Of a stretch of DNA of 64,000 nt, positions 33,680 through 62,966 are shown one piece after another. This DNA is from an uncultured Gammaproteobacteria bacterium. GTDB taxonomy: Bacteria > Pseudomonadota > Gammaproteobacteria > JAKDMP01. The notes under the pieces were generated by a model that saw nothing but the letters and a program-made list of their open reading frames with translations, had not been told where the DNA came from and ran no database searches. Within the stretch, counting starts at the first letter, position 1; the number at the start of each line of letters is the position of its first letter. Made by a program: the position numbers and the translations under genes. Location: the NCBI GenBank assembly GCA_963843735.1, contig CAWJLN010000001.1, forward strand, positions 129,023 to 193,022, written 5' to 3'.

Positions 33680-36380
<2,701 letters not shown>

Positions 36381-37165: not shown

Positions 37166-37255
37166 GGAGAGATGGCCGAGTGGTCGAAGGCGCTCCCCTG
37201 CTAAGGGAGTAAGGGCTAACGCCCTTCGAGGGTTCGAATCCCTCTCTCTCCGCCA
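37166..37255 (+). tRNA. tRNA-Ser (anticodon GCT), CCA encoded
   Basis: Hand-folded: acceptor GGAGAGA/TCTCTCC, anticodon stem CTCCC/GGGAG with loop CTGCTAA, long variable arm GGGC-TAAC-GCCC, T-arm GAGGG-TTCGAAT-CCCTC. Confidence 0.9.
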
Positions 37256-38203: not shown

Positions 38204-38280
38204 GCGCCCGTAGCTCAGTTGGATAGAGTACCTGGCTACGAACCAGGGGGTCGGGAGTTCGAATCTCTCCGGGCGCGCCA
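38204..38280 (+). tRNA. tRNA-Arg (anticodon ACG), CCA encoded
   Basis: Hand-folded: acceptor GCGCCCG/CGGGCGC, anticodon stem CCTGG/CCAGG with loop CTACGAA, T-arm GGGAG-TTCGAAT-CTCTC. Confidence 0.9.
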
Positions 38281-38740: not shown

Positions 38741-40426
38741 GTGTCAGGTATGCCTGCTTTGTTCAGGAGCGGTGTGCCGAAGGTGTCAATAAAGAGCCGC
38801 GGGAATGGTAGCAGCAACATTTTGGAGGCCGCTTCGGGTGATGGATTCCGAGATCCAGGCTTATCGGACGCGTATGGTCAAGGCGCTGTGACCAAAGCAT
38901 TTACCCGGGTAACCACGTTGGCGCGCCTCTGTGGCAGGCGCTTTTTAATATCAGGTTTGATTATTGGATTGAGTGTGGTGCTTGCGCTTGCGCTTGCGCC
39001 GCGTCCGGCGCAGGCCGATCCCTGGCTCGCACCGGGCAACGTGCAGGCCCGCCAGGACGTCGAACTTCTGGTGGACACGGGTGTCATCAACGTTCCGGTC
39101 ACCACCTGGCCGATTCCCTGGGGTTCAATCTCGGCGCAATTGGCCACCGTGGAGACCGACAAGCTCTCTCCCTCCCAGCAGCTCGCCTACGAACGTCTGC
39201 TCGACGACATCCGCGGCGTGCAGGCGGGCGGCAATCAGTTCGGGTTCATGGCGGCTGCGGCGCCCGGGCGTCCGGCGCTGCGCTGGTTCGGCGACACGCC
39301 GCGCGGCAAGGAGGCGGCCGGCGCCTCCTGGTCCGGCTACAACGGCAATCTCGCCTTCCGCTTCAACGTCGCCGCGGTGTACGGCAGTCGCGATCACCAG
39401 CGTGCTCGTTTCGATGGCAGCTATCTCTCCGTCGCACTCGGCAACTGGATTCTGACCGCCGGCCAGATTGATCAATACTGGGGGCCGGCCTGGAGCGGCA
39501 GCCTGATTCTTGGAACGAATTCGCGGCCGGTGCCCGGCGTGATGTTGAGCCGCAATGTCTCCACGCCCTTCGATACTCCGATCCTGCATTGGATGGGACC
39601 GTGGACGTTCACGATTTTTGCCGGGCGGCTCGAGAACAGCCGCTATGTGCCAAATCCCTTTCTGCTCGGTGCACGTTTCGCGATCCGACCGCTTTCGGGC
39701 GTGGAGATCGGGCTTTCGCGTACCGCCGAGTTCGGTGGCGCGGGGAGACCCCAGAACTGGAGTTGCCTGTGGAAAACCATTATCGGACACACGAATATAC
39801 AACCAGGGACAACAGTTAATTGCGCCAATCAGCTTGCCGCGGTTGACGCAAGGTTCCACATCCCCCGAACACGCCTCGCCTTTTACGGGCAGTTAAACGC
39901 GGAGGACACATCAAGTTCAGGTTTGAGCAAATGGACAGACCTTTTAGGGCTTTCCATGTGGGGAAGTGTCGGCAACGACGGCGCGAACTATCGCGGATTC
40001 CTCGAATATGCCAATACCACGGTCAATTCATATAAACAGCCCGACCCCAATATCGAATATGAACACGGTATCTATCGCAGCGGTTACCGCTATCGTGGCT
40101 TCGATCTGGGCTATCCGACCGACAACGACAGCGAACTATGGACCCTGGGCCTGACCCTGCAAGGTGCGAACGATGGCCAATTGACCTTCATTCTGCGGCA
40201 TGGTACCCTCAATCGCGACAATACCAATGTGTTCGAGCCGTGGGGTGGCAATAAATTGGCGCCGGTGCGAACGGGGCTGGACGAAGCCGACGTGTATTTC
40301 CAACCGTCGTTCTGGGGGGGGCATTTGAATCTCGGTGTGGGGGTTATCCGCTGGGCGCCGATTGGGCTGCCGGTCGAGACGGGACTGCACGCGCAAGTGG
40401 TATGGCAGCAAGGCTTCAACGAATGA
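38741..40426 (+). CDS. wzi: capsule assembly outer-membrane protein, Wzi family
   Basis: Signal peptide ...LALALAPRPAQA|DPWLAPGNVQARQDVELLVDTGVINVPVTTWPIPWGSI (Wzi-type N-terminal motif), followed by a long beta-rich region. The true start is probably GTG 38888 or TTG 38918. Confidence 0.7.
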   Translation: MSGMPALFRSGVPKVSIKSRGNGSSNILEAASGDGFRDPGLSDAYGQGAVTKAFTRVTTLARLCGRRFLISGLIIGLSVVLALALAPRPAQADPWLAPGNVQARQDVELLVDTGVINVPVTTWPIPWGSISAQLATVETDKLSPSQQLAYERLLDDIRGVQAGGNQFGFMAAAAPGRPALRWFGDTPRGKEAAGASWSGYNGNLAFRFNVAAVYGSRDHQRARFDGSYLSVALGNWILTAGQIDQYWGPAWSGSLILGTNSRPVPGVMLSRNVSTPFDTPILHWMGPWTFTIFAGRLENSRYVPNPFLLGARFAIRPLSGVEIGLSRTAEFGGAGRPQNWSCLWKTIIGHTNIQPGTTVNCANQLAAVDARFHIPRTRLAFYGQLNAEDTSSSGLSKWTDLLGLSMWGSVGNDGANYRGFLEYANTTVNSYKQPDPNIEYEHGIYRSGYRYRGFDLGYPTDNDSELWTLGLTLQGANDGQLTFILRHGTLNRDNTNVFEPWGGNKLAPVRTGLDEADVYFQPSFWGGHLNLGVGVIRWAPIGLPVETGLHAQVVWQQGFNE

Positions 40427-41034
40427 AGGCTTCCCTGTTCAATCCTTCATTTCCACAGTTGTCGGAGGATGACTCTCTTGCTCCTTCTCCCCTTGCGGGA
40501 GAAGGTGAGGACAAGGGGAACATTGCGAAGCAATGGAAGGTGCTTTTCACCCTCACCCCAACCCTCTCCCGTCGAGGGAGAGGGGGCAAGACAGGTTTTT
40601 TACCCTCCTTCTTGTTCGCATTGCGAGGAAGGGGGAGTTGGAGGGGGATTCCGGGATTTCTCACCCTCACCCCAACCCTCTCCCGTCAAGGGAGAGGGAG
40701 CAAGACGGCTGGAAGCATTCTCGCAATCGGCGTTTTGAGTTTGGCGCTCGCAGGCTGTTCGCTGCCGGGCAGGGCCTTTCCGGGCGGTCCAAGCCCTTGG
40801 CTGTCGGGAGGGGCACCGGGTTCCGTTTACGGAGCCCCGCCAGCCACGTCTCCAGCCCCGGCGACCACTCACCGGGGCAGCTCTGAAGTACAACGTCCGG
40901 CCGATTCAGGCACAGCGACGAGCGGCAAAAAGGGCGGCGATTATCCGTTGCCACGCAGTGTCGGCTTCGATAAAGAACGAGTATTTCGATACAATGCGCG
41001 CCTTGATCCCGAGCTGCGCACCGCTTTATCTACA
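40423..41034 (+). other. open frame from an ATGA-coupled ATG through the repeat array to a lipobox (LALAGC, Cys codon 40756); coding status unresolved
   Basis: ATG 40423 overlaps the wzi stop. The frame stays open through the 114-bp repeats to AIGVLSLALAGCSLPG and then a Pro/Gly/Ser-rich stretch. There is no stop before wzb, which is in the same frame. Confidence 0.3.
40481..40700. repeat. repeat array: one inverted-orientation hairpin copy + 1.35 tandem units of 114 bp (CCCTCACCCCAACCCTCTCCCGTCGAGGGAGAGGG...)
   Basis: Units start at 40547 and 40661 (period 114). Each unit holds the hairpins CCCTCTCCC-N4-GGGAGAGGG and CCTTG/CTCGCA-T-TGCGAGGAAGG. Confidence 0.8.
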
Positions 41035-41478
41035 ATGATAGCCAGTCTGCTTGTCGTTTGCACCGGTAATATCTGCCGCAGCCCGATGGCGGCGGCCCTG
41101 TTTGCCGAGCGCGCCGGCGCAGCGGGGAAGCCGCTTGAAGTGGCCTCTGCCGGCACGGCGGCGATGATCGGTCATCCTCCACCCGATGAGGCGATTGAAC
41201 TCATGGCCGAGCGGGGGCTCGATATCAGCGGTCACCGGGGCCGGCAGATCACGGGTGAAATCGCCCGAAACTACGACCTTATTCTGGTGATGGAGCGCGC
41301 GCAGCAACAGTACATTGAAGCCAACTGGCCGATATTCAGGGGACGCGTGCACCGCCTCGGCGATCGGCGTGACGAAGACATCAGCGATCCGTATAGCAAG
41401 CCAAAGGAGGCATACTTGGAAAGCCTTGCGCAGATTGATGCCGGGGTGGAGGAATGGAGCGGGATGTTGCTTCAATGA
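41035..41478 (+). CDS. wzb: low-molecular-weight protein-tyrosine phosphatase
   Basis: MIASLLVVCTGNICRSPMAAALF (C-x5-R-S P-loop) and DISDPY; 147 aa. Confidence 0.9.
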   Translation: MIASLLVVCTGNICRSPMAAALFAERAGAAGKPLEVASAGTAAMIGHPPPDEAIELMAERGLDISGHRGRQITGEIARNYDLILVMERAQQQYIEANWPIFRGRVHRLGDRRDEDISDPYSKPKEAYLESLAQIDAGVEEWSGMLLQ

Positions 41479-43004
41479 AAAAAATGATATTCGTATCCCC
41501 TCTTCCCTTGCGGGAGAGGGCAAGGGTGAGGGGTACAGCCGCGAAGCGGCTGATAGTTGGAATGTTCACCCTCACCCCAACCCTCTCCCGTCAAGGGAGA
41601 GGGAGCAGGACAGGTTTACCCTCCTCCTTGCTCGCATTGCGAGGAAGGGGGAGTTGGAGGGGGATTTCGGGATTTCTCACCCTCACCCCAACCCTCTCCC
41701 GTCAAGGGAGAGGGAGCAAGACAGGGTTACCCTCCTCCTTGCTCGCATCGCGAGGAAGGGGGAGTTGGAGGGGGATTCCGGGATTTCTCACCCTCACCCC
41801 AACCCTCTCCCGTCAAGGGAGAGGGGGCAGAGCTGCTCTTGCAATCGGTGTGCTGGGCTTGGCGCTGGCGGGATGCTCATTGCCGGGTTTTTCCTTTCAC
41901 GGCAGCCACAAGCGTGCGCAGGAGAACGGGAAAGCGACGGGCTATCAGGTGCAGCCCATTACCCCGGCGCTGCTTCGGGCGCAGGCCGAGAAGCGGCAGC
42001 AGACCGCAGTGGGTCTGCCCAATCCGGCGCTGAAACAGGCCATCAGCGACTACAGTTATCGCGTGCAGTCCCAGGATGTGATCGGCGTCACGATTTGGGG
42101 GCACCCGGAGTTCAGCCCCGGCGCATCTCCGGCCGCCGATTTGTCTTCGGCCAATAACACCGGCATTACGAATCCCGGTGCCGCATCCCCCGGTCAGGCC
42201 GGATTCACCGTCCAGGCGGACGGGACAATTTTCTTCCCCTACGTCGGTAAGCTGCACGTCGCGGGACTCACGATGGACGAGGTGCGCGAGAAACTGACCA
42301 AGGCACTGAAGGCCTACGTCGTTGATCCGCAGATCAACGTGACCGTAGTCGGGTTTCACGGCCAGACGTATCAACTTGCGGGCGCGGTCGTCAAGCCGGG
42401 CTTGTATCCGATTACCAACGTGCCGGTTACGGTATCTCAGGCGATCCAGGCCGCGGGGGGCATCCTGCAGACGGTCCCGACCGTAACGGTTGCTTCCAAG
42501 GCATCTGCAACGGCACTGGCTGATCTGGCGCACGTCCTCTACATCCACGATGGCAAGCGCTCGGTCTTGAACCTGCGCGATTTCTTTCAGAACGGCGACG
42601 AATCGCAGGATCGTCTCGTGCATCCGGGCGATATCATCCAGGTGCCCGACAATTCCTTCGATCAGGTGCATCTGATTGGCGAGGTGCGGGAGCCGGGTAA
42701 TTACCCGCTCGACAACGGGCAGTTGAATCTAGCCCAGGCGTTGGGCGCCGCGGGCGGTCTCGATCTGACCACGGCGAATCCGAGCCGCATTTTTGTGTTC
42801 CGGGGAGCGTACGAAAAGCCGCTGATCTTTTGGCTGGATGCGCGGTCTCCCGAATCCATGCTGCTGGCCACGCAGTTTGAGTTGAAACCGCAGGATGTCG
42901 TCTTTGTCGCAACCGCGGGCATCAGTACCTGGAACCGTATCGTCAGTCAGATTCTGCCGACGGTGCAGGCGCTTTACGAAACCAAGGTGTTGGTGAAGCC
43001 ATGA
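41475..43004 (+). CDS. wza: polysaccharide export outer-membrane lipoprotein Wza (start and N-terminus unresolved because of the in-frame repeat array)
   Basis: Lipobox LALAGC (Cys codon 41874), then a Poly_export-type region (YRVQSQDVIGVTIWGHPEFS, TVQADGTIFFPYVGKLHVAGLTMDEVR) and SLBB-like repeats. ATG 41475 overlaps the wzb stop (ATGA). The only start-like codon near the lipobox is GTG 41850. Confidence 0.8.
   Translation: MKKMIFVSPLPLRERARVRGTAAKRLIVGMFTLTPTLSRQGRGSRTGLPSSLLALRGRGSWRGISGFLTLTPTLSRQGRGSKTGLPSSLLASRGRGSWRGIPGFLTLTPTLSRQGRGGRAALAIGVLGLALAGCSLPGFSFHGSHKRAQENGKATGYQVQPITPALLRAQAEKRQQTAVGLPNPALKQAISDYSYRVQSQDVIGVTIWGHPEFSPGASPAADLSSANNTGITNPGAASPGQAGFTVQADGTIFFPYVGKLHVAGLTMDEVREKLTKALKAYVVDPQINVTVVGFHGQTYQLAGAVVKPGLYPITNVPVTVSQAIQAAGGILQTVPTVTVASKASATALADLAHVLYIHDGKRSVLNLRDFFQNGDESQDRLVHPGDIIQVPDNSFDQVHLIGEVREPGNYPLDNGQLNLAQALGAAGGLDLTTANPSRIFVFRGAYEKPLIFWLDARSPESMLLATQFELKPQDVVFVATAGISTWNRIVSQILPTVQALYETKVLVKP
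41497..41825. repeat. repeat array: one inverted-orientation hairpin copy + 2.35 tandem units of 111 bp, same family as 40481..40700
   Basis: Units start at 41566, 41677 and 41788 (period 111 = 37 codons). Confidence 0.85.
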
Positions 43005-45208
43005 GTGATGCCGAGAATAAATCCGAAAACCAGAGCAAAGGTAATGCCTGGACGCCATCGCAGAGTATGGCCGTAGCCGGTAATGAGGACGGAGTAGATC
43101 TACGCGTATTGACCGCTGCGTTGTGGGGAGGGAAGTGGATCATTGCGGCCATCGCCGCCGTGGTGCTGGTGCTCGCGCTACTTTATGCTTTCCTTGCGCA
43201 TCCGGTTTACGAGGCGGATGCGCTGATCCAGATCGAGCAACAAAATCAAACTCCGGGCACCTCCACGGATATTCTATCGCTTCTATTGCCGATGGCCGCT
43301 CCTGCGGATGCCGAAATCGCGATTATGACTTCGCGCTCGGTCCTTCAGCCTGCCGTCGAGCACGAGCACCTTAATATCGTGATAGCGGGGGAGGGGTTGC
43401 CCTTCATCGGGCATTCGGATGTGACAGGGGTTGCGGTTACGCAATTGCAGGTGCCCGGTGATTGGATGGACCAAAAACTGGAACTCACACCCAAGGGAAA
43501 TGGTGCTTATGAGCTTGCTTCCCCGTCAGGCGACGAGGTTCTCAAAGGCCAGGTCGGCCGGCTTGTGAGCGCTCGCAACGGAACCGTCAAGATTCTGGTC
43601 AGCCGTCTGGATGCACCGGCGGGCGAGAGTATTACGCTAACGCGCCTTTACGATCAGGAAGCCATCTCGACGCTGCAGAAGAATTTAACCGCTGCCGAAC
43701 AGGGCAAGGACACCGGCATCGTGCAGATCACTTTGGATGGTCCGCAGCCAACCCGAACCAGGGATATCCTCAACACCCTGGTGGATCAGTACATCAATCA
43801 GAATGTAGCGGTCATGGCACTGCAGGCAAAAACCAGCCTGGCGTTCATTAACAAGCAATTGCCACAGCTCAAAAAACAACTGGACGCTGCCGAAGCCAAG
43901 CTGACTGTCTTCAAAACGAAAAACGGTGCCGTTGGCCTCGATCAACAGGCGCAAACGATGCTGCAAGTGCTGACAACGTTGGAATCTCAGCTTACACAAC
44001 TAAATCTTGCCGAGGCGGCCATGCGCCAGAGCTACACTTCCCGCTATCCGGGCTTCCGGGCACTGCGTGGTCAGGAGAAGGACATCCAGCGGAAAGTAGA
44101 AGCCATCGAGACCAAAATCAACCTGTTGCCCAAGCAGGAGCAGAACTACCTGGGATTGATGCAGGACGTGCAGGTATATACGCAGCTTTATACGACACTG
44201 CTGGCCAAGGTGCAGGATCTTCAGCTCGCCGAGGCAGGCACGGTGGGGAGTGCGCGCGTCGTGGATTATGCGGTCACGCCGATCAAACCGGTTGCGCCCC
44301 GCAAGAGCATCATCGTCGTGCTAGGGCTGTTGCTCGGATTATTTCTGGGCGTCATGGTCGTATTTTTACGCCACGCATTGTCGCGCACGGTGCAGGACGC
44401 GGCCGCGCTTGAGCGCGAGTTCGGCTTGCCGGTTTACGCCGTGGTGCCGCACAGCGACCAACAGGACTATTTGATCAAGAAAGCCAAACGCAGCCATGCG
44501 ACGGGGATACCCTTGCTGGCGGTTGACGATCCGCTTGATCCGACCGTCGAATCCATCCGCAGCCTGCGTACCAGCATCAACTTTGCGCTGCAAGGATCGG
44601 CGCGCAAGGTAATCACCTTGGGCGGCTGCGCTCCCGGGGTCGGCAAGAGTTTCCTCAGCGTCAATCTGGCGCATGTCCTTGGAGCGAGTGGTGCGAGGAT
44701 ATTGCTTGTTGACGCCGACATGCGACGCGGACATCTGGAAAAGTACATGGATGGGCGCAAGCAGCCCGGCCTGTCCCAGATTCTATCCGGCGAAGTCTCT
44801 TCGGAGGAGGCGATTCGCCACAGCCCGTACAGCAAAAACGTGGACTTTCTGCCTACCGGAATATTTCCTCCCAATCCCTACGAATTGCTGACGAATCCTC
44901 GCCTGCGAGCGCTCATTGACACATGTTCGGATAGTTATGATCTGGTGGTTGTTGACGTGCCGCCGGTGTTGGCGGTTGCGGAAGGCTTGCTTATCAACCG
45001 CCTTGCGACGGCTAATTTCCTTGTCGTCAGGGCGGGATCACAGACGCTTCAGGAGTTGCGCCTGGCAGTAGATCGCATGCGGCAAAACGGCATTCAACCG
45101 AACGGCTTCGTGTTCAATGACCTTACGCGTCAGGCGGCAACCAACACCTATGGTCGCTATGCCAAGACTTATTACTACACCCGTTATGGCAATCAAGGGA
45201 AGAAGTGA
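43001..45208 (+). CDS. wzc: polysaccharide co-polymerase / tyrosine autokinase (BY-kinase)
   Basis: Wzz-like N-terminal half with two TMs, Walker A GCAPGVGKS, Walker A' LLVDADMRR, Walker B VVVDVPP, and a C-terminal Tyr cluster YGRYAKTYYYTRY. ATGA overlap with wza. Confidence 0.9.
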   Translation: MSDAENKSENQSKGNAWTPSQSMAVAGNEDGVDLRVLTAALWGGKWIIAAIAAVVLVLALLYAFLAHPVYEADALIQIEQQNQTPGTSTDILSLLLPMAAPADAEIAIMTSRSVLQPAVEHEHLNIVIAGEGLPFIGHSDVTGVAVTQLQVPGDWMDQKLELTPKGNGAYELASPSGDEVLKGQVGRLVSARNGTVKILVSRLDAPAGESITLTRLYDQEAISTLQKNLTAAEQGKDTGIVQITLDGPQPTRTRDILNTLVDQYINQNVAVMALQAKTSLAFINKQLPQLKKQLDAAEAKLTVFKTKNGAVGLDQQAQTMLQVLTTLESQLTQLNLAEAAMRQSYTSRYPGFRALRGQEKDIQRKVEAIETKINLLPKQEQNYLGLMQDVQVYTQLYTTLLAKVQDLQLAEAGTVGSARVVDYAVTPIKPVAPRKSIIVVLGLLLGLFLGVMVVFLRHALSRTVQDAAALEREFGLPVYAVVPHSDQQDYLIKKAKRSHATGIPLLAVDDPLDPTVESIRSLRTSINFALQGSARKVITLGGCAPGVGKSFLSVNLAHVLGASGARILLVDADMRRGHLEKYMDGRKQPGLSQILSGEVSSEEAIRHSPYSKNVDFLPTGIFPPNPYELLTNPRLRALIDTCSDSYDLVVVDVPPVLAVAEGLLINRLATANFLVVRAGSQTLQELRLAVDRMRQNGIQPNGFVFNDLTRQAATNTYGRYAKTYYYTRYGNQGKK

Positions 45209-45233
45209 TGCATGTAGCGACATGCACATTTTG
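45209..45233 (+). terminator. candidate intrinsic terminator after wzc
   Basis: TGCATGT-AGCG-ACATGCA followed by CATTTTG. The stem is short (7 bp). Confidence 0.45.
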
Positions 45234-45462: not shown

Positions 45463-47544
45463 ATGGTGAAAATGGTTAAGCCCGACTTTTCGGGAGTGCT
45501 CAATCATACCTTGCTATTACTCAAGGAAATCAGCCGCGAGTATCAGCCTTCAGTATTGGCCAATGGGTTCGGCCCTGAGTCCATGGTGCTCATTGATTTG
45601 ATTGCCAAACACGATTTATCGATAGACATTATTTCGCTGGATACCGGGCGCCTTCCTGAAGAGACTTATGAACTGGCGCAAAATGCGTTTAAACGCTACG
45701 GATCTATTATTCGGCTGGTGATGCCGGATGAAGAAGAGATTCTGGCCTGGACGTCGCGGAATGGGCCGAATGCTTTTTATCAAAGTGTCGAATTGCGTCA
45801 AGAATGCTGTGGCATACGCAAAGTGGCGCCGCTGAAGCGCGTGTTGGCGGGCAAAAAGGCTTGGTTGACAGGAGTTCGCAAGGAGCAGACAATTACGCGT
45901 GCCCATATGGGAGAACGCATGTGGGATGCCGGTAACAGCCTGTACAAGTTCAACCCGATGATTGATTGGACTGCGGAGCAAGTGTGGGCCTATATTCACG
46001 AATATACCGTCCCTTATAATGCACTGCACGATAAGGGGTACCCCAGCATTGGATGTGCGCCGTGTACTCGTGCGGTGAGTCCCGGTGAGGATCATCGGGC
46101 TGGCCGCTGGTGGTGGGAGCGGGAAGCGGCCAAGGAGTGCGGCTTACACCTGGATCCGGAAACGGGGCGCTTTCAACCGAAGGCTGCCTCAAAGGCGGAA
46201 ACCGCCGGGAGCCCACCGCTTCGGAACCACAGGAAAAGTGCGCATTTTCCGCATCCGGAAGAGGATGCGAAATATGCCAGTGAAGCTAATTTTTTCGATA
46301 ATGTAGCCAAGGTTAAAGACAGGAGTTCAGCAATGAAGGTATTGATATTGGGTGGAGACGGATTTTGTGGCTGGCCGACCGCTTTGCATCTTTCGGCACA
46401 GGGCCATGATGTGGCTATCGTGGATAATCTATCGCGTCGCAACATAGATATTGAGCTTGAATGCAATTCATTGACACCCATCAGGCCGATGAGCGAGCGT
46501 CTGCGGGCATGGAAAGAAGTGTCCGGAAAGGAAATTTCCTTCCACAACTTCGACGTGGCGGTGAACTATCAGCGCCTGTTGGATTTGCTCAAGGAATGGC
46601 AGCCCCAGGCGGTGGTGCACTTTGCGGAGCAGCGTGCTGCGCCGTACTCGATGAAAAGCAGCTACCACAAGCGCTACACAGTCAGCAATAATCTGAACGC
46701 TACCAACAATTTACTGGCTGCCGTGGTCGAAAGCGGCCTGGACATTCATATTGCTCATCTGGGCACTATGGGAGTGTATGGTTACGGCACGGCGGGCATG
46801 AAGATTCCAGAAGGATACCTGAAGATCAAGATAGACACAGGCGAAGGCGAGCTGATTGACAATGAGATTTTGTATCCGGCAAATCCAGGCAGCATTTACC
46901 ACATGACGAAGACACAGGACCAGTTACTGTTTTTCTTCTATAACAAGAATGACAAAATTCGCATTACCGATTTGCATCAGGGCATCGTTTGGGGCACGCA
47001 AACCGAACAGACCAAGATGGACGAACGTTTGATCAATCGCTTCGACTACGACGGTGATTATGGCACGGTGTTGAACCGTTTCCTGATGCAGGCCGCCATC
47101 GGTTATCCCTTGAGTGTTCACGGTAGCGGCGGGCAGACTCGCGCCTTCATCCATATTCAGGACACCGTACGTTGCATCCAGATTGCTCTGGAAAATCCGC
47201 CTGCCGTTGGAGAGCGGGTACAGATATTCAACCAGATGACAGAATGTCATCGAGTACGTGATTTGGCCAAGATGATATCCGATCGCACGGGTGTGAAGAT
47301 TGATAATGTGCCGAACCCTCGTATCGAAGCGGACGAGAACGAACTGCACGTCGCCAACGATCGCTTCCTGCACTTGGGACTCGATCCGGTTACGCTGAGT
47401 GACGGGCTCATGGAAGAGGTCACGGAGATTACCCACAAGTACGCCGGCCGCTGTGACAAATCGAAGATTCCGTGTGTGTCATTTTGGCGCGCCCCTGCCG
47501 CTTCAGGCCATGCGAAGCGGGCCAAATCAGATATTGCCGGTTGA
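45463..47544 (+). CDS. fusion protein: N-terminal APS/PAPS reductase (CysH-like, Fe-S type) + C-terminal UDP-sulfoquinovose synthase (SQD1/SqdB)
   Basis: N-terminal domain: FGPESMVLIDL, LDTGRLPEETY, ECCGIRKV, SIGCAPCTR, RAGRWWWE, KECGLH. C-terminal domain from M291 (nt 46333): MKVLILGGDGFCGWPTALHL, HFAEQRAAPYSM, GTMGVYG, SIYHMTKTQD, DYDGDYGTVLNRF, NPRIEADE. No stop between the two domains. Confidence 0.85.
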   Translation: MVKMVKPDFSGVLNHTLLLLKEISREYQPSVLANGFGPESMVLIDLIAKHDLSIDIISLDTGRLPEETYELAQNAFKRYGSIIRLVMPDEEEILAWTSRNGPNAFYQSVELRQECCGIRKVAPLKRVLAGKKAWLTGVRKEQTITRAHMGERMWDAGNSLYKFNPMIDWTAEQVWAYIHEYTVPYNALHDKGYPSIGCAPCTRAVSPGEDHRAGRWWWEREAAKECGLHLDPETGRFQPKAASKAETAGSPPLRNHRKSAHFPHPEEDAKYASEANFFDNVAKVKDRSSAMKVLILGGDGFCGWPTALHLSAQGHDVAIVDNLSRRNIDIELECNSLTPIRPMSERLRAWKEVSGKEISFHNFDVAVNYQRLLDLLKEWQPQAVVHFAEQRAAPYSMKSSYHKRYTVSNNLNATNNLLAAVVESGLDIHIAHLGTMGVYGYGTAGMKIPEGYLKIKIDTGEGELIDNEILYPANPGSIYHMTKTQDQLLFFFYNKNDKIRITDLHQGIVWGTQTEQTKMDERLINRFDYDGDYGTVLNRFLMQAAIGYPLSVHGSGGQTRAFIHIQDTVRCIQIALENPPAVGERVQIFNQMTECHRVRDLAKMISDRTGVKIDNVPNPRIEADENELHVANDRFLHLGLDPVTLSDGLMEEVTEITHKYAGRCDKSKIPCVSFWRAPAASGHAKRAKSDIAG

Positions 47545-47678
47545 ATGGCCGCGGGATGTGCGAACAATCCGTATGTTCCTCGCATAGCCTGCCGCTTTGC
47601 GGAGTTCCAAGCTGGGTGAAATTGTAATGTCCGTGTGCCGGATTGCTGCGAGGCGCACGGTCTGCCATTGAGAGGACG

Positions 47679-48350
47679 ATGATGCGCAAAATGATGAGAA
47701 TTAATGTCGGGTGTGGCAAAACGCCTACAAAAGGCTGGGATAATTACGACAACGCATCGAGTCTTCGTCTGGAAAAGACACCCTTTATACCTGATCTCTT
47801 GATGAGGTTAAGACTTATTGGGAGCTCCCGCGCTCAATTTATTCGGTTTGCGCGAGAAAATAAAATAAGGTACGGTGATGTGACAAAAGGGTTGCCTATT
47901 AAAGACAATTCCGTTTCCGTTCTTTATAGCTGTCACATGCTGGAGCACCTGGATAGAAGCGAAGTCGCCATATTTCTCCGAGAGGCAATTCGGGTCCTGT
48001 GCCCGTGTGGAGTCATCAGAATAGCCGTGCCGGATATAAAAAAATTGGTCAACCAATACATGGAATCTGGTGACGCAGATGAATTTATCGGAGCGACGCT
48101 CCTGGCTTCCCCTCAACAAAAATCCTTTGCAAAACGTTTGCGTATGTTTCTCTCGGGCCATCGCGACTATCGCCAACATCAGTGGATGTACGATGGCGCT
48201 TCATTGGCGAGCTTGCTAAAGAGGCAGGGTTTTGTGAATATTGAGGTCCTTCCTGCCGGCCAGACAAGAATAGAATCGCCTGACCTGCTGGATCTGTACG
48301 AAAGAGACTGGGAGAGTGTTTATGTAGAGGCGGTAAAGCCGAATGGTTAA
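47679..48350 (+). CDS. class I SAM-dependent methyltransferase
   Basis: MMRKMMRINVGCG (motif I-like), VLYSCHMLEHL and GVIRIAVPD. GAGAGGA RBS before ATG 47679. Confidence 0.7.
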   Translation: MMRKMMRINVGCGKTPTKGWDNYDNASSLRLEKTPFIPDLLMRLRLIGSSRAQFIRFARENKIRYGDVTKGLPIKDNSVSVLYSCHMLEHLDRSEVAIFLREAIRVLCPCGVIRIAVPDIKKLVNQYMESGDADEFIGATLLASPQQKSFAKRLRMFLSGHRDYRQHQWMYDGASLASLLKRQGFVNIEVLPAGQTRIESPDLLDLYERDWESVYVEAVKPNG

Positions 48351-48447: not shown

Positions 48448-49293
48448 ATGAAAGCAAATTGTGCATTTTGTAAACAGTGGACATTATGCGTTTTGGCAAC
48501 CTTATTTTTGGCAGTAGTCGCGTGTTTTGCCGGTGCGTCTGGAGTTCAATCAGATAAGCAATTATTGCCCCTGACGGATAAAAGTACCGCTTGGGTTTTG
48601 ATCCCTGGGTTGTCAGATGAATTCAACGGAAGTCGGATAGAGACTTCCAAGTGGGATACTCAACTTAAAAGCTGGTCCCCGTATTGGACATGGTCCGATA
48701 AGTCGTTAACGGAACATAATGGAGACTTATATATAACCATGCAATATGCTCCGCATAAGAGAAATGCTAGAAGAGTGCACTATGTAAGTGGCATCTTGAG
48801 GAGCAGATTGACTATAAAGTACGGCTATTTCGAGGCAAAAATCCGAGCTGCGCCCAGATTCCCGGGTGTGTCATCGGCATTCTGGTCATCACCATCCAGG
48901 AAGAATGGTTCTCAGTGGACAGAGATAGATTTTGTGGAGACGGATCAACACAAATCAGATCCGCGCAGTATGGACTTTACATTGCATGTTCTCCAGTTGC
49001 CACATATCGCAAGCCTGAAATCTCAAATTCACGAATATCACACATGGCGCGCGCCCTGGGATCCAAGTGCGGCTTTTCATATCTATGGATGTGAGTGGAC
49101 TCCTGCGGAAATCAGCTGGTATGTTGATGGGGTAAAGGTGGAGTCCCGTGATAATAAATATTGGCATCAGCCATTAAATATTTCGCTGTCTCTGGGGCTG
49201 CGCCCCCCCTTGAAAATGAATCCCACCGCATCGGGCTTCCCCACGACGATGGTGGTGGATTATGTCCGTGTGTGGACCAAAAATAAATTCTAA
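48448..49293 (+). CDS. secreted glycoside hydrolase family 16 (beta-glucanase-like)
   Basis: Signal peptide, catalytic motif EIDFVE (E-x-D-x-x-E), and WDPSAAFHIYGCEWTPAEISWYVDG, typical of GH16. Confidence 0.75.
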   Translation: MKANCAFCKQWTLCVLATLFLAVVACFAGASGVQSDKQLLPLTDKSTAWVLIPGLSDEFNGSRIETSKWDTQLKSWSPYWTWSDKSLTEHNGDLYITMQYAPHKRNARRVHYVSGILRSRLTIKYGYFEAKIRAAPRFPGVSSAFWSSPSRKNGSQWTEIDFVETDQHKSDPRSMDFTLHVLQLPHIASLKSQIHEYHTWRAPWDPSAAFHIYGCEWTPAEISWYVDGVKVESRDNKYWHQPLNISLSLGLRPPLKMNPTASGFPTTMVVDYVRVWTKNKF

Positions 49294-49304
49294 ATACTAT
49301 TGAC

Positions 49305-50633
49305 ATGAAGCGTATATCTAAAATTAGAATCTCAAATTCTCCGCTTCGGATAAAAATATTTTCAAACGCAGGATGGCTGCTGGGTGATAAAGTAGTGCGT
49401 ATGGGGGTTGGCTTATTTGTCGTGGCATGGGTCGCACGCTACCTGGGGCCGGAAAGATTTGGAATTCTGAGTTATGCGCTAGCGCTTATCGCGCTACTCG
49501 TTCCAATCGGGAAATTGGGGCTCGATACCATCGTGGTTCGAGATATCGTGCGCGATGAAGGGGCTACGCACGAAATTCTCGGCACGGCATTCACTGCAAA
49601 ATTAATCAGCGGAATAATTGTTGCCATTCTAGGTGTAGTAACAATATCGCTGATCAAACCAGGGGATTTGGAGATGCTCTGGCTGGTGGCCATATTATCC
49701 TTGATGATTGTATTCCCTGCAATGGATGTAGTGGATTTCTGGTTCCAGTCGCAATTGCGATCAAAGAATATTGTGATCGCAAGAGATGCCGCATTTCTTC
49801 TTGCTTCCATTGCTACTGTTGGAATTCTTCTGGCCAAATCATCGCTACTCGCCTTTGCTGGAGCACGAAGTTTAGAGCTGTTTCTCGCTGCACTGGGCAT
49901 GGCCTGGGCGTACAAGATGAGCGGAAATAGCATCAAGCGCTGGAGATTCGATAAATCAAGACTTAAGATGCTAATGGCGGATAGCTGGCCGCTTATCCTC
50001 GCCGGTGTGGTTACTGGAATTTATATGCGAATTGATCAGGTTATGATTGGTCAAATGATAGGCAATGCCGCAGTTGGCCAGTATTCCGTGGCCATACGTA
50101 TAGCGGAGGTATTCTATTTTCTGCCTGTAGTGATCTCGAAGTCATCTTTCCCGGCTATCATAAATGCGAAAGGCATAAGTTCCGATTTATACAAACGGAG
50201 AGTTCAAAAGCTCTGTAGCTGGCTTGCAATCATATCCTACGCTATTGCATTGCCTATGACATTTTTGTCCGATTTTGTCGTAAGGGTTATTTTTGGCAGG
50301 CAATATATGGAGGCAGGCCCCGTATTGGCTATCTATATTTGGGCCTTGGTTTTCGTTTTCCTGGGGGTAGCAAAGAGCACTTGGATAACCTCTGAGGGTT
50401 TGATGAAATACATATTTATATCCACTGGCATGGGCGCAGTATTAAATATACTGTTGAATATAGCTTTTATCAGGTCGTGGGGTATGTTAGGCGCTGCTTA
50501 TGCCACGTTGATTTCTCAAAGTATTGCGTCTGTGCTGTCCAATGCGTTGTTCAGGAAAACTCGACCCATATTTTTTGTTCAAATAAAATCCCTATTGCTT
50601 TTGGGGTTTTTCAAGAAGTTTCAACAAGCATAG
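49305..50633 (+). CDS. wzx: polysaccharide flippase, Wzx (MOP superfamily)
   Basis: 442 aa, ~12 hydrophobic segments, located within a Wzy-dependent locus. Confidence 0.75.
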   Translation: MKRISKIRISNSPLRIKIFSNAGWLLGDKVVRMGVGLFVVAWVARYLGPERFGILSYALALIALLVPIGKLGLDTIVVRDIVRDEGATHEILGTAFTAKLISGIIVAILGVVTISLIKPGDLEMLWLVAILSLMIVFPAMDVVDFWFQSQLRSKNIVIARDAAFLLASIATVGILLAKSSLLAFAGARSLELFLAALGMAWAYKMSGNSIKRWRFDKSRLKMLMADSWPLILAGVVTGIYMRIDQVMIGQMIGNAAVGQYSVAIRIAEVFYFLPVVISKSSFPAIINAKGISSDLYKRRVQKLCSWLAIISYAIALPMTFLSDFVVRVIFGRQYMEAGPVLAIYIWALVFVFLGVAKSTWITSEGLMKYIFISTGMGAVLNILLNIAFIRSWGMLGAAYATLISQSIASVLSNALFRKTRPIFFVQIKSLLLLGFFKKFQQA

Positions 50634-50648: not shown

Positions 50649-51410
50649 ATGGACGTAGCCGTATTTTGTTACAACAGACCGGATAAATTAAGAATGTGCC
50701 TGGATATGGTGGATTTGTCTTATGTGGACAAATTGTGGGTCTTTTGCGATACATGGAAAAATAAGCAAGATGAAGAAATGGTGTTAAAGACTATAGATAT
50801 AGCAAGAAAATTCAGGTTCCAAAATAAAGAAGTTGTTGTTCGAGAAAAAAATTTTGGTACACCGAAAAATGTTATCAACGGCCTTGATCGAGTCTTTAAA
50901 AGCTCGGATACGTGCATGGTATTGGAAGATGATTGTATTGTAAGACCGGAAGCCTATGCGTATGTTGATAAAGCACTAAAAATTTTTGAAAACGATAGGC
51001 GGGTATTTTCTATAAACACCATGGCGCCACTCGGGCTGATTCTTAATAAAATTGCATCGCTTTTTGTACATAATGACATTGTTGCTTGCCGTCGTGTCTT
51101 TGCCTTTTGGGGATGGGCGACGTGGGCTAGCCGATGGGGGGAATTCAGAAGCGACCTGGAACCATTTAAGAATCCCTATGGTAATGCACAAAAAGTCCCA
51201 TTGGGTGTTGGGCGGCATGTACGGGCAACATTGAAACTGCATGAGGAAGGGAGAGTGGGCGGCTGGGACGCTAGACTGTTATGTTTGGCCTACTACAATA
51301 AGTGTCTTCATATCCATCCACGCGTGAGCCTCATGCGAAACATTGGTCTCGATGGGACAGGGCCCATTATTCGGCACGCCAGCAGAGCGTATATGATGTC
51401 AAAGCATTGA
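50649..51410 (+). CDS. putative GT-A fold glycosyltransferase (GNT-I/GT13-like; tentative)
   Basis: VAVFCYNRPDKL, VLEDDCIV (EDD metal-binding-type motif) and FWGWATWASRW. Confidence 0.55.
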   Translation: MDVAVFCYNRPDKLRMCLDMVDLSYVDKLWVFCDTWKNKQDEEMVLKTIDIARKFRFQNKEVVVREKNFGTPKNVINGLDRVFKSSDTCMVLEDDCIVRPEAYAYVDKALKIFENDRRVFSINTMAPLGLILNKIASLFVHNDIVACRRVFAFWGWATWASRWGEFRSDLEPFKNPYGNAQKVPLGVGRHVRATLKLHEEGRVGGWDARLLCLAYYNKCLHIHPRVSLMRNIGLDGTGPIIRHASRAYMMSKH

Positions 51411-51621: not shown

Positions 51622-52320
51622 ATGAATACCAAGTATCTTGTAAAAACAGCATTTAAGAATCCAATTACTGAGTACTTATATTTTGTGCTTAATTTTATAA
51701 GAAATAAATTTAGGTACGAGCATATATCTCAAGAATACCTTTCGTTAGTCATAAGATCGAATCTTGAGAAGAATATTAGGATTTATGATCATGCTATTGT
51801 CAAGAAGTCAAAAATTGGCACATATACTTACGTGGGTAGATCAAGCCGTGTAAACAGGGCTTCAATAGGAAGATTTTGCTGTATAGGGCCGAATTGTATT
51901 ATCGGAACGGGCCGACACCCTAGCCGCACATATGTGTCGTCTCATCCGGCATTTTATTCTACGGGAAGGCAAGTAGGATTAACTTTCTCAGATAAAAATT
52001 ATTATGAAGAACTTGGTTCTGTCGTGATTGGGAATGACGTATGGTTGGGTACTAATGTTATCGTAGCTGACTCGGTTAAAATAGGCGATGGTGCGATCAT
52101 TGCTGCTGGCGCTGTGGTTACTAAAGATATACCTGCTTATGCCATTTATGGAGGGGTTCCCGCCAAGCTGATTCGATATCGTTTTGAACAGGATGTGATT
52201 GAGTTTTTGTTAAAGTTCAAATGGTGGGGAAAAGACGAAACCTGGTGGAAAGAGAATTTTAAGGAGTTTCATGATATAACCGAATTTATCCGGAATTATG
52301 GCCCCTGTATTCTAGAATAG
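51622..52320 (+). CDS. hexapeptide-repeat O-acetyltransferase (XAT/CatB-like)
   Basis: IGNDVWLGTNVIVADSVKIGDGAIIAAGAVVTKDIPAYAIYGGVPAKLIRYRF. Confidence 0.85.
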   Translation: MNTKYLVKTAFKNPITEYLYFVLNFIRNKFRYEHISQEYLSLVIRSNLEKNIRIYDHAIVKKSKIGTYTYVGRSSRVNRASIGRFCCIGPNCIIGTGRHPSRTYVSSHPAFYSTGRQVGLTFSDKNYYEELGSVVIGNDVWLGTNVIVADSVKIGDGAIIAAGAVVTKDIPAYAIYGGVPAKLIRYRFEQDVIEFLLKFKWWGKDETWWKENFKEFHDITEFIRNYGPCILE

Positions 52321-52376: not shown

Positions 52377-53112
52377 ATGTTGGCTAATCGCGCAAAGCGT
52401 TTCGCAAAACACCAGATTAGACGTTGTGGTTTCGAAATCAAAAAATATAAAGTTGGCACATCAAGCTTGGCTACGCTATACCGCCTGCTATCCCAGTATA
52501 GGGTCGATCTTATTTTTGATGTGGGCGCCAATGTCGGGCAGTATGCAATGGATCATGCGTGTTGCGGGATATAAAGGTCGTATTGTGTCATTTGAACCAT
52601 TATCTACTGCCTACAATAAATTAGTTCAATCAAGCAGGAGAGATGCTAGGTGGCTTGTAGCGCCAAGAATGGCTATTGGCGATGTGGATAAAGAGATTAC
52701 AATAAACATTTCGGGAAATTCGGTCAGCAGTTCCATTCTAAATGTTTTGGACAAGCACGTGGAAAGCGCGCCTTCGTCGGCCAGGGTTGGCGAAGAAAGG
52801 GTTGCCATGAAAACATTAGATAGTGTTTCTGAGCAGTTTTTGGAAGGCTCGGAAAGTCCGTTTATTAAAATTGACACTCAGGGCTATGAAGCCCAGGCCC
52901 TGATGGGGGCGGCTAATACGCTGCCCAGAATATGTGGCCTGCAGATAGAACTTTCTTTGGTTCCACTGTATGAAGGGCAATCCCTCTATTTTGAGATGGT
53001 GGAGTCTATTGTGTCGCTGGGGTTCAGCCTTCATGGGCTGGTGCCGGGATTTACTGATCCTCATTCGGGTAGATTGTTGCAGGCCGACGGTATTTTTTTC
53101 AGAGACGTTTAG
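52377..53112 (+). pseudogene. FkbM-family methyltransferase with an apparent frameshift near 52550-52560 (or sequencing error)
   Basis: ORF 52377..52574 ends ...DLIFDVGANVGQYAMDH. ORF 52426..53112 continues in another frame: ...RVAGYKGRIVSFEPLSTAYNKL...FIKIDTQGYEAQALMG. Confidence 0.6.
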
Positions 53113-54591: not shown

Positions 54592-55404
54592 ATGAATAAT
54601 ACTTTTCGAGTGAGTGTCATTACGGTTTGCTGGAACTGTGCTGATGAAATTGAAAATACGGTCAGGAGCGTTCTTGACCAAACCTATAAGAACATCGAAT
54701 TTATCGTTATAGATGGAGGGTCAACTGACGGCACACTGGAATATCTGGAATCCTTATCGAAAAGAATTGACGTTCTAGTTACGGAGTCAGATAAGGGTCT
54801 TTATGATGCGATGAACAAGGGTGTTAATCGGGCGTCTGGAGATTATGTAATTTTTATGAATGCTGGCGATAAATTTTTGTCGAATAAAGTCGTCAAAGAC
54901 GTGATAGAGGATCCAGAAATAATCGAGGGGAAACCAAAAATTATATCCGGCAGGGTGCAGTTTGAATATAAGGGAAAGCTGTTAAACAGGTTTAGGCCCT
55001 CAAAATTTGGGAAGGGATCTGCTGGATTGCCGCACCAGGCGACTTTTATTGACAAGCAATTACAGGAAGACAATCCTTTTGATATCCGTTTAAAGTGGGT
55101 TGCGGACTATGAGCTGTGGCAAAGATTGAAGTTTAAGGGTTTGTTTGATGTTTTTTATATTCCAAATGTGATAGCTGTTTTTGCTCTTGGCGGCAGATCG
55201 AATGACGTAAAATATGACACAAGGCGTCTTGCGGAACGCCTATTTGTTGATAGCATCTACTCGGACGATTTTGGGGTTTCCAAGTGGATAAAGGCGATTG
55301 TAAAGATCATTTTTAGGCGTATTGTATATAGGCTTTTTGGCAGTGGTTTATTATATTGGTCTTTATATGTTTCCAGAGCAAGGTTTTTTGAAAGAAATGC
55401 TTGA
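54592..55404 (+). CDS. glycosyltransferase family 2
   Basis: VSVITVCWNCADEIENTVRSVLDQTYKNIEFIVIDGGSTDGT and FMNAGD (DxD-equivalent). Confidence 0.85.
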   Translation: MNNTFRVSVITVCWNCADEIENTVRSVLDQTYKNIEFIVIDGGSTDGTLEYLESLSKRIDVLVTESDKGLYDAMNKGVNRASGDYVIFMNAGDKFLSNKVVKDVIEDPEIIEGKPKIISGRVQFEYKGKLLNRFRPSKFGKGSAGLPHQATFIDKQLQEDNPFDIRLKWVADYELWQRLKFKGLFDVFYIPNVIAVFALGGRSNDVKYDTRRLAERLFVDSIYSDDFGVSKWIKAIVKIIFRRIVYRLFGSGLLYWSLYVSRARFFERNA

Positions 55405-62036: not shown

Positions 62037-62966
62037 ATGTCTAACCTCAATGCTCCTCATTTCCAAGATGCCGATAAGGCCCGCGAGTACCTTGAGGCAC
62101 TACGCTGGCCTAATGGCCCCGTATGCCCGCACTGCGGGAGTGAGAACGATCACTACCGAATCACGGGCAAGAGCGCCCGTCCCGGCCTGTGTAAGTGCAA
62201 GGATTGCCGCAAGCAGTTCTCCGTCACTGTCGGGACTGTGTTCGAGCGTTCCAAGATTCCGCTCAATATCTGGCTACAGGCCACTTTTCTGGTCTGCTCA
62301 AGCAAGAAGGGCATCAGCGCTCACCAGATACACCGTATGCTCGGCGTGACCTATAAGACTGCTTGGTTTATGTGCCATCGCATCCGCGAGGCCATGACCA
62401 TGAATCCTAACGGGCTTCTCGGCTCGGGCGGCAAGACCGTCGAGGCCGATGAAACCTATTGGGGAAATATGCCCGGCAAGACCAAGCGCCAAGGCTACCA
62501 GCACAAGATGAAGATCGTCGCACTAGTCGAGCGTGAGGGCGACGTGCGCTCATTCCACGTCCCGCATGTGAGCGGCAAGACGCTGCGCCCAATCCTCAAG
62601 GGTCAGATAGCCTCCGAGGCCCGTCTCATGACCGATGAGGCGCGCATGTATATCAAGATAGGCCGCGAGTTTGCGTTTCACGGCGTAGTTAATCATTCCG
62701 CTGGTGTCTATGCCGATGGGGATATAACTACCAACACCATCGAATCTGTGTTTAGCCTACTCAAGCGTGGCCTAGTCGGCACCTTTCACCATGTAAGCGA
62801 GGAACACTTGCAGCGCTATCTGCATGAGTTCGACTTCCGCTACAACCTGCGCAGCAGCCAAGGGTTTGACGATGCAGACCGCACGGATGCCGCCCTGATC
62901 GGTATAGCGGGAAAGCGCCTTACCTATCGGCGGACTCAAGAAGAAGCCCAAATAGCGGACCTTTAG
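62037..62966 (+). CDS. IS1595-family (ISXO2-like) transposase
   Basis: N-terminal zinc ribbon (PVCPHCGS...CKCKDCRKQFSVTVGTVFERSKIPLNIWL), HTH-like GISAHQIHRMLGVTYKTAWFMCHRIREAM, and a DDE region (VEADETYWG...LMTDEARMY...NTIESVFSLLKRG). Confidence 0.85.
   Translation: MSNLNAPHFQDADKAREYLEALRWPNGPVCPHCGSENDHYRITGKSARPGLCKCKDCRKQFSVTVGTVFERSKIPLNIWLQATFLVCSSKKGISAHQIHRMLGVTYKTAWFMCHRIREAMTMNPNGLLGSGGKTVEADETYWGNMPGKTKRQGYQHKMKIVALVEREGDVRSFHVPHVSGKTLRPILKGQIASEARLMTDEARMYIKIGREFAFHGVVNHSAGVYADGDITTNTIESVFSLLKRGLVGTFHHVSEEHLQRYLHEFDFRYNLRSSQGFDDADRTDAALIGIAGKRLTYRRTQEEAQIADL

Follow-up and report, generated by a model that had tools for sequence, protein, structure and literature searches.

Here we describe a gene that joins the enzyme expected to release sulfite to the enzyme expected to consume it in making UDP-sulfoquinovose, a C-sulfonate-bearing sugar in its activated form. 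The gene lies in a 64,000-nucleotide stretch of DNA from an uncultured gammaproteobacterium (assembly GCA_963843735.1, contig CAWJLN010000001.1, positions 129,023 to 193,022; hereafter the window, to which all coordinates below refer unless another sequence is named). In it, one open reading frame (ORF) on the + strand (45463..47544; 693 amino acids) encodes an Fe-S type adenosine 5'-phosphosulfate (APS) reductase of the CysH family, a linker, and a UDP-sulfoquinovose synthase of the SqdB/SQD1 family. Both domains carry their catalytic residues, at least 120 protein clusters of full-length homologues preserve the fusion, and the gene stands within a capsule locus. We consider it probable, from these sequence features, that the product is a bifunctional enzyme which would direct APS-derived sulfite into UDP-sulfoquinovose, and that this would supply a sugar of the Wzx/Wzy-dependent capsule specified by the same cassette.

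Two catalytic domains in one reading frame

The 693 codons of the ORF contain no internal stop. A preliminary description of this DNA had proposed that a single ORF unites the two domains and had named hidden Markov model scans as a check; its coordinates and strand were exact, and both domains were recovered by Pfam and by NCBIfam. Pfam placed PAPS_reduct at residues 31-204 (1.2e-39), a match spanning the full length of the profile (PF01507), and Epimerase (NAD-dependent epimerase/dehydratase) at residues 293-582 (4e-20). The motifs quoted in that description all lie where it had put them: ECCGIRK at residue 114, GCAPCTR at 197, KECGLH at 224, GGDGFCG at 297, HFAEQRAAPYSM at 386 and YHMTK at 479.

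The N-terminal domain (residues 1-229; 45463..46149, + strand) scores 240-242 bits with the APS_reductase model TIGR02055, above its cut-off of 235.3, and 248 bits with NF002537, for which the cut-off is 154; in a search of the Protein Data Bank (PDB), residues 33-230 matched the APS reductase of Pseudomonas aeruginosa (2goy) with an E-value of 4e-51. Its predicted cluster ligands comprise the pair C115-C116 and, after 81 intervening residues, C198-A-P-C201, and its catalytic cysteine would be C226 within KECGLH (residues 224-229). In an alignment of 60 fused homologues, all four cluster cysteines are invariant, as are K224, E225, C226 and G227. A CC-X~80-CXXC arrangement separates the [4Fe-4S], APS-reducing subclass from reductases of 3'-phosphoadenosine 5'-phosphosulfate (PAPS), and the C-terminal catalytic cysteine is essential in sulfonucleotide reductases (Carroll et al. 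2005, PMC1175818). By its sequence the reductase half thus belongs to the bacterial [4Fe-4S] APS reductases, group b of the sulfonucleotide reductases, which bears out the subtype assigned in the preliminary description.

The C-terminal domain (residues 291-693; 46333..47544, + strand) falls by sequence in the SqdB/SQD1 family, with its catalysis predicted accordingly. Arabidopsis SQD1 (1i24) aligns end to end with residues 291-676 (E-value 4.5e-97; PDB search), and the SqdB of Sinorhizobium meliloti is 65.1% identical to the domain; the gene for the latter heads an sqdB-glycosyltransferase operon for the lipid sulfoquinovosyl diacylglycerol (SQDG), adjoining tolQR and ruvAB. Within NCBIfam, the UDP-sulfoquinovose synthase model NF041015 scores 347-350 bits (E-value 9e-104), against 47 bits for GalE models and at most 50 for the next-best families of short-chain dehydrogenases/reductases (SDR), so that the earlier assignment of this half to SQD1/SqdB, as opposed to an ordinary epimerase, stands. 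The Epimerase match (PF01370) agrees with the extended SDR fold of these synthases, and an N-terminal NAD-binding motif of the GxxGxxG type, GGDGFCGW, occupies residues 297-304. The active-site residues listed for SQD1 (Thr145, Tyr182, Lys186, His183 and Arg101; PMC4388408) correspond to T435, Y479, K483, H480 and R391; these and the NAD motif are invariant in the 60 fused homologues, and H386 belongs to the same set of residues noted in the domain.

Two features of this half could be taken to mean that it is an SQD1-like SDR with some other chemistry or substrate, for instance one that acts on another UDP-sugar or is a 4,6-dehydratase stopping at the 5,6-ene, in which case the N-terminal domain would be an ordinary assimilatory CysH. 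First, its 350 bits fall short of the 575-bit equivalog cut-off of NF041015, a point that also weighs against our own assignment. Second, the position of SQD1 Glu148 is occupied by Val438, and the equivalent Glu147 of Agl3 is important for dehydration (PMC4388408). Controls weaken the first: an SQD1-class representative (474 bits) and S. meliloti SqdB (332 bits) both lie under the cut-off, and because the latter, an enzyme of an SQDG operon, scores lower than the domain examined here, the threshold leaves out accepted members of the class and we do not take the score as an argument against SqdB identity. The valine we reject as a sign of divergent chemistry, for LGTMGVYGYG is common to the nearest stand-alone bacterial SqdB representatives, LGTMGEYG being the form of the SQD1-like class. 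Given in addition the invariant threonine, tyrosine, histidine, lysine and arginine of the SQD1 site, and a recurrent link to a sulfite-making enzyme (see below) that would make little sense without sulfite as the co-substrate, we regard a different chemistry as very improbable.

The fusion is genuine and widely dispersed

The fusion is genuine and conserved. Among the matches listed, at least 120 protein clusters (formed at 90% identity) align with the fused protein over 95-100% of its length at 66-79% identity and contain both Pfam domains. Carriers include many metagenome-assembled genomes (MAGs), gammaproteobacterial ones among them, as well as cultured species of Nocardioides (such as N. 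coralli, N. antri and N. bizhenqiangii) and Isoptericola (such as I. jiangsuensis), in part with the gene on contigs 3.5-4.5 Mb long. In their nucleotide sequence, 14 fused loci representing 11 distinct junctions run in frame and stop-free, the reductase continuing via the linker into SqdB. Scanning contigs with the single protein of the window yielded mostly stand-alone sqdB genes and only four fused species, and a metagenome scan with an alignment contributed only one further fused locus.

These data bear on the concern, raised in the preliminary description, that the long frame might be an artefact of an error-prone assembly in which a stop codon had been lost or an indel introduced. For the assembly itself the worry about indels was justified: alaS is divided by a frameshift into 33686..34294 (tRNA-synt_2c profile positions 1-152) and the overlapping 34101..36380 (positions 152-552), and alaS being an essential gene, the split near 34.1-34.3 kb points to an indel error. 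The fused ORF is another matter, since its architecture recurs in clusters from independent projects, finished Nocardioides and Isoptericola genomes included, and its junction is open in every one of the loci compared. An artefactual origin therefore carries almost no probability.

That description had also entertained the possibility that the architecture was already common and annotated. It is indeed common and has been named automatically, but each name covers one domain only, 'phosphoadenylyl-sulfate reductase' at NCBI and 'UDP-sulfoquinovose synthase' at JGI, and such naming hides the pathway. The enzyme families and the type of locus are well known, yet the fusion, abundant in databases, is without description in the literature: within the open-access literature searched, a 2026 review of sulfoquinovose included, we found no mention of a CysH-SqdB fusion. 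Nor did that literature hold any report of sulfoquinovose in a bacterial polysaccharide, the glycoconjugates found being SQDG and archaeal N-glycans. The preliminary description, too, knew of no characterised fusion of this kind and of no such capsule pathway.

In a neighbour-joining tree of SqdB domains (40 bootstrap replicates, to be read as a rough guide only), 11 fused sequences form one compact clade together with about six non-fused ones, and no more than nine non-fused sequences fell inside the fused clade in 37 of the 40 replicates. Actinobacterial fused copies nest among proteobacterial ones. This topology fits one or few fusion events followed by occasional fission and by horizontal spread.

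The linker and an internal translation start

The preliminary description had noted a stop-free linker of about 60 residues; it measures 61 (residues 230-290; 46150..46332, + strand). Over the fused loci its length varies from 33 to 63 residues, and its sequence is unconserved apart from a short xDPxTGR start. It is predicted to be flexible: in an AlphaFold2 model, computed from a 60-sequence alignment, residues 198-288 have predicted local distance difference test (pLDDT) values below 50, against about 90 in the reductase core. The model as a whole is poor (mean pLDDT 61.6; predicted template modelling score 0.47) and was used only to identify the low-confidence tail and linker.

Within the fused ORF, a Shine-Dalgarno sequence AGGAG (46321-46325) ends 7 nt ahead of an ATG (46333-46335; + strand), which is the ancestral start of SqdB. 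This methionine opens the SqdB part in all fused loci, in the motif MK[VI]L[VI]LGGDGFCGW, and unfused genes of the same SqdB clade start at the same residue, several with AGGAG at a similar upstream distance. The possibility of independent SqdB translation from this site had been mentioned in the preliminary description, and comparison of the junctions strengthens it. GGAG occurs exactly 11 nt 5' of the internal ATG in 8 of the 11 distinct junctions, and between -16 and -5 in 9 of the 11, compared with backgrounds, within the same genes, of 4.1% for the remaining in-frame codons and 2.5% for the remaining internal ATGs. The corresponding binomial P of 2e-11 overstates the case, as the junction sequences are not phylogenetically independent, although the surrounding linker is fully diverged. 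Moreover, GGAG is spelled by rare NGG-AGN codons that encode differing residue pairs (RS, GR, RR, GS), and hence what is constrained is the nucleotide sequence, not the protein. Free SqdB is thus probably translated from the internal start as well, as judged from the conservation of this site.

A stronger version of this idea holds that the two halves act as separate proteins, the internal start providing most of the SqdB and the fusion being a tolerated read-through product of closely packed genes, so that the arrangement would achieve co-regulation only. Besides the GGAG maintained by rare codons at -11, it can call on unfused pairs of sqdB and APS reductase genes in both orders (described below) and on the few non-fused genes that nest in the fused clade. 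Yet the frame stays open through an unconserved linker of freely varying sequence in 14 of 14 fused loci and in at least 120 clusters, and neutral read-through would soon have gained stops or frameshifts there. We therefore consider essentially separate action rather unlikely, and retain a bifunctional protein, probably accompanied by free SqdB, as our interpretation.

A low-GC capsule cassette in the window

The fused gene is the first of a variable, low-GC block that follows the genes for Wzi, Wzb, Wza and Wzc; all protein-coding genes named in this section up to and including the transposase lie on the + strand. Pfam profiles identify wzi (38741-40426; Caps_assemb_Wzi), wzb, for a low-molecular-weight phosphatase (within 40402-41478; LMWPc), wza (within 41454-43004; Poly_export, SLBB and Wza_C) and wzc (43001-45208; Wzz, GNVR and AAA_31). 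Directly after wzc and ahead of the variable block is a hairpin with a T-rich tail (45209..45226, + strand), a weak terminator-like site; in the scan for promoters and terminators that covered it, the numbers of sites were not above shuffled expectation.

Beyond the fused gene, Pfam and NCBIfam assign in turn a methyltransferase (47643-48350), a GH16 protein (48448-49293), a Wzx flippase (49305-50633; Polysacc_synt and Polysacc_synt_3), a weak GT2-like protein (50649-51410), a hexapeptide acyltransferase (51622-52320) and an FkbM methyltransferase (52426-53112). There follows a protein of 430 residues (53192-54484) that Pfam and NCBIfam do not match; with about 10 hydrophobic segments it is polytopic, as Wzy proteins are, and is a plausible candidate for Wzy. 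The block continues with a WcaE-like GT2 (54592-55404), Gmd (55524-56636), an Fcl-like epimerase/reductase (56633-57568), a WcaI-like GT4 (57690-58919), a sulfotransferase (58984-59880), a small initiating phosphoglycosyl transferase (59867-60493; Bac_transf) and a DegT aminotransferase (60505-61680), and an IS1595-family transposase (62037..62966; PF12762, PF12760) marks its distal edge. The start of the phosphoglycosyl transferase gene lies within the sulfotransferase gene, the two sharing 14 nt, and translational coupling is suggested by this overlap; for this reason the capsule polysaccharide is probably O-sulfated, whatever the fate of the sulfoquinovose.

G+C content, 61-70% in the backbone, drops from wzc on: the fused gene has 52% and most of the block 38-49%, with 56% in the last gene. 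Genes for tRNA-Ser(GCT) (37166-37255) and tRNA-Arg(ACG) (38204-38280) stand just upstream of the capsule locus. Low G+C, adjacent tRNA genes and an IS1595 edge are together the hallmarks of a serotype-specific cassette, gained horizontally, within a capsule locus of group-1-like type. The preliminary description had inferred a Wzx-type capsule context without an SqdD-type lipid glycosyltransferase. The genes for Wzi, Wzb, Wza, Wzc, Wzx, glycosyltransferases and sulfotransferase confirm that context, and the window holds no homologue of S. meliloti-type SqdD (this search was for SqdD only; SqdX was addressed indirectly, through the GT4).

By its MetK, the host is an uncultured gammaproteobacterium whose closest named relatives, Inmirania, Thioalbus and Acidihalobacter, stand at about 79-80%. 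Elsewhere in the window, the single ORF at 3542-4741 encodes a fatty-acid desaturase domain (residues 18-244) together with the C-terminal portion of an ISL3 transposase (residues 273-393), reflecting either an insertion sequence in a desaturase gene or another frame error. Two - strand ORFs lacking a Pfam match, at 21559-24585 (1008 aa) and 30437-32152 (571 aa), may be wrong-strand shadow ORFs in a backbone of 65% G+C.

Glycan-assembly loci surround the fusion in other genomes

Gene maps annotated with Pfam were drawn for seven further fused genomes, high-GC loci being called with a GC3-filtered ORF caller. All gene-annotated fused loci are glycan-assembly loci, with GT2 and GT4 genes and export by Wzx or by an ABC transporter, and the fused gene is often translationally coupled to sulfotransferase or glycosyltransferase genes. 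Two gammaproteobacterial MAG lineages have the order Wzb-Wzc-Bac_transf-Wzx-fusion-GHL15-...-sulfotransferase-...-FkbM-GT4-Gmd-Fcl. In Nocardioides coralli the order is fusion-Sulfotransfer_2-GT2-GT4, and a related actinobacterial genome presents the fusion, two Sulfotransfer_2 genes, GT2 and GT4; in Isoptericola jiangsuensis the fusion is flanked by glycosyltransferases, two Sulfotransfer_3 genes and an ABC transporter. A further fused lineage has Sulfotransfer_3, WbsX, glycosyltransferases and an ABC transporter, and one locus comprises an epimerase gene, the fusion, a pair of FkbM genes, Wzx and GT4s, no sulfotransferase being visible there. On one contig (L170), a gene of the NusG family (7928-8431 of that contig; RfaH-like) lies immediately 5' of the fusion-bearing operon and hints at antitermination control of such cassettes.

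Sulfotransferase genes were detected in 8 of 10 distinct fused loci (those with at least 12 kb of sequence) and in 2 of 94 stand-alone sqdB loci (Fisher P ~8e-9), a comparison biased by tblastn queries drawn from the fused loci. Detection by tblastn also errs low, for Pfam caught a sulfotransferase in one locus (L084) that tblastn had missed. Because the sulfotransferases of the fused loci span three Pfam families, their association with the fusion is recurrent and not the inheritance of one cassette.

The loci also inform an alternative fate for the sugar, namely that UDP-sulfoquinovose is made but its sugar is built into a glycolipid of the membrane, whether SQDG or a sulfolipid related to it, the position of the gene in a polysaccharide locus being incidental. 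Precedent speaks for it: all characterised bacterial SqdB proteins serve SQDG, as in S. meliloti, where sqdB is followed by a glycosyltransferase gene. Cyanobacterial SqdX belongs to family GT4, and GT4 enzymes are encoded both in the window and directly after some stand-alone sqdB genes. Set against this, the fused gene lies within glycan-assembly operons at every gene-annotated fused locus, in two phyla, with the frequent translational coupling noted above; in the window it is part of the low-GC serotype cassette, whose GT4 is WcaI-like. Homologues of S. meliloti-type SqdD were absent within 10 kb of all fused loci, as they were from all 94 stand-alone loci. A lipid destination is thus distinctly unlikely in our estimation, and a capsular one remains the destination that we favour.

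Stand-alone and paired sqdB genes

Stand-alone sqdB-like genes whose products are 69-86% identical to the C-terminal domain are common in Solirubrobacterales, Rhodobacterales, Sphingomonadales and Gammaproteobacteria, in heterogeneous surroundings: a GT4 gene lies directly downstream in 3 of 10, and others include GT2, P450, a transposase and, among further genes, one sulfotransferase. Genes of this kind (69-76% identity) abound in soil Actinobacteria that are not phototrophic (Solirubrobacterales; many MAGs of this order and of Actinomycetota), likewise in varied neighbourhoods. The representative library contained other fusions as well, namely GT8 (SqdD-like)-SqdB (P0129), HAD-GT8-SqdB (P0133), Gly_transf_sug-SqdB and DUF934-CysH, together with sqdB genes interrupted by LAGLIDADG inteins.

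In three other lineages an unfused cysH-like gene is paired with sqdB, in either order: on a plasmid of Pelagovum pacificum and at two further loci (L101 and L117). The paired CysH-like proteins are only 33-36% identical to the fusion's N-terminal domain, and each has the CC...CAPC motif and a C-terminal catalytic cysteine. On the Pelagovum plasmid (p_SM1903_1; NZ_CP065916.1, 41 kb), the pair (12013-13919 of that plasmid) has sqdB first and then, as a gene of its own, the Fe-S APS reductase. This pair, whose neighbours encode glycosyltransferases, DUF4422, a large protein of the HAD family and ABC/sugar transporters, constitutes a mobile, unfused counterpart in a cultured marine alphaproteobacterium. 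Since the three pairings involve reductases only distantly related to the fused one, in both gene orders, the coupling of Fe-S APS reductase with SqdB has arisen repeatedly, at least three more times without fusion, and this repeated coupling is the strongest comparative argument that the reductase feeds SqdB.

A proposed route from APS to a capsule sugar

The sequence of events that we propose begins with C226, on the flexible C-terminal tail of the reductase, which would attack APS to give AMP and an S-sulfocysteine, from which thioredoxin would free sulfite; this mechanism is established for the reductase family (PMC1175818). The SqdB domain, with tightly bound NAD+, would oxidise and dehydrate UDP-glucose to the 4-keto-5,6-ene, to which sulfite would be added at C6 before reduction of the product to UDP-sulfoquinovose, as in the mechanism of SQD1 and Agl3 (PMC4388408). 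The fusion could thereby act as a local source of sulfite for sulfoquinovose, independent of the housekeeping cys regulon and with free sulfite kept low; at the minimum, it would secure co-expression from a mobile cassette, the internal ribosome-binding site probably adding free SqdB. The UDP-sulfoquinovose would then most likely go to a glycosyltransferase encoded in this same cassette of horizontal origin. The predicted outcome is a capsule assembled by Wzx/Wzy, exported by Wza/Wzc and anchored by Wzi that carries a C-sulfonate sugar along with fucose or another 6-deoxyhexose and with O-sulfate, O-methyl and O-acyl groups.

Several considerations, beyond the model cut-off discussed above, weigh against this scheme. 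The ORF, its two domains with their catalytic residues, the conservation of the fusion and the setting of the gene are shown, whereas catalysis by either domain, the sugar's destination and direct channelling are all predictions. The structural model, with its low overall confidence, is uninformative on docking of the two domains. Because the conserved internal Shine-Dalgarno sequence and ATG suggest additional free SqdB, strict channelling is weakened; both activities could be made separately, and the covalent link may be non-essential. Thioredoxin would still be needed, and none is encoded nearby. The 64 kb in view are too little of the genome to show a separate housekeeping cysH. Finally, the GT4 (WcaI-like) and GT2 (WcaE-like) of the window resemble colanic-acid enzymes of fucosyl/galactosyl type. 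As these two look like transferases of 6-deoxyhexose or hexose, the candidate user of UDP-sulfoquinovose would be the weak GT2-like protein (50649..51410) or else some enzyme not recognised as a glycosyltransferase.

A more far-reaching proposal, which we advance tentatively and think doubtful though possible, is that the fused loci specify an undescribed and widespread class of bacterial surface polysaccharide, which would combine sulfoquinovose with O-sulfate and occur both in the capsules of Gammaproteobacteria and in Nocardioides and Isoptericola cell-wall glycopolymers, and that the S-sulfocysteine tail of the reductase swings to the SqdB site. Were such a hand-over to occur, it would provide the first direct evidence of how UDP-sulfoquinovose synthases acquire sulfur in vivo, with sulfite bypassing the bulk cytoplasm.

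Several implications would follow from these readings. Production of sulfoquinovose has been attributed almost wholly to the SQDG lipid of phototrophs, with archaeal N-glycans in addition. That nature has joined SqdB to an APS reductase, and conserved the arrangement, is 'Rosetta-stone' evidence for APS-derived sulfite as the physiological donor, evidence to which the unfused pairings add. The sulfotransferase-rich glycan loci of non-phototrophic Gammaproteobacteria and Actinobacteria predict bacterial polysaccharides that are both sulfonated and sulfated. If true, these would amount to a polyanionic capsule of a new type and would supply the sulfoglycolytic food web from a new source, and soils and waters would contain a pool of sulfoquinovose that stems neither from phototrophs nor from lipids. 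As a self-contained enzyme, the fusion lends itself to tests of channelling, and the cultured Nocardioides and Isoptericola carriers open the proposal to immediate testing.

Relation to known systems

At the level of the locus, the window shares its order of export genes, hairpin and low-GC block with group 1 capsule and colanic-acid loci, and its block likewise has Wzx, a putative Wzy, glycosyltransferases, Gmd/Fcl and the WcaI- and WcaE-like enzymes. Among described loci of the group 1 or colanic-acid type we know of none with a gene for sulfoquinovose synthase or for APS reductase, and the same holds for the literature searched. The N-glycan pathway of Sulfolobus acidocaldarius, which employs Agl3, is likewise bound for the cell surface and places sulfoquinovose on a lipid-linked oligosaccharide, not on a diacylglycerol lipid; however, it builds an archaeal, dolichol-linked protein N-glycan without a fused reductase and without Wzx, Wzy, Wza or Wzc.

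At the level of the protein, the N-terminal domain resembles the assimilatory APS reductases of bacteria (P. aeruginosa 2GOY and Mycobacterium tuberculosis) in fold, in CC-X81-CXXC and in ECGLH, but its catalytic tail runs into a 61-residue linker and a second enzyme, and its gene belongs to a capsule cassette instead of a cys operon. Plant APR offers a precedent for a partner domain, in that case thioredoxin-like, placed right after the catalytic tail of an Fe-S reductase (PMC1175818), so the tail evidently tolerates a C-terminal partner. The plant partner supplies electrons and thus acts upstream of sulfite release, whereas the fused SqdB would consume the product; unlike plant APR, the fused protein has no redox domain, and free thioredoxin would be required.

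The C-terminal domain shares GxxGxxG and the T/Y/H/K/R set with SQD1 of Arabidopsis, SqdB of S. meliloti, Rhodobacter and cyanobacteria, and Agl3 of Sulfolobus. Those enzymes are stand-alone proteins serving the SQDG lipid or archaeal N-glycans, whereas this one is fused to a reductase. How sulfite reaches UDP-sulfoquinovose synthase in vivo has been described as unknown, SQD1 having been found complexed to ferredoxin-dependent glutamate synthase (Fd-GOGAT) (PMC4388408). Parallels in architecture are P0129 and P0133, in which SqdB is likewise fused to a partner of its pathway; there the partner is the downstream lipid glycosyltransferase, and here it would be the upstream supplier of sulfite.

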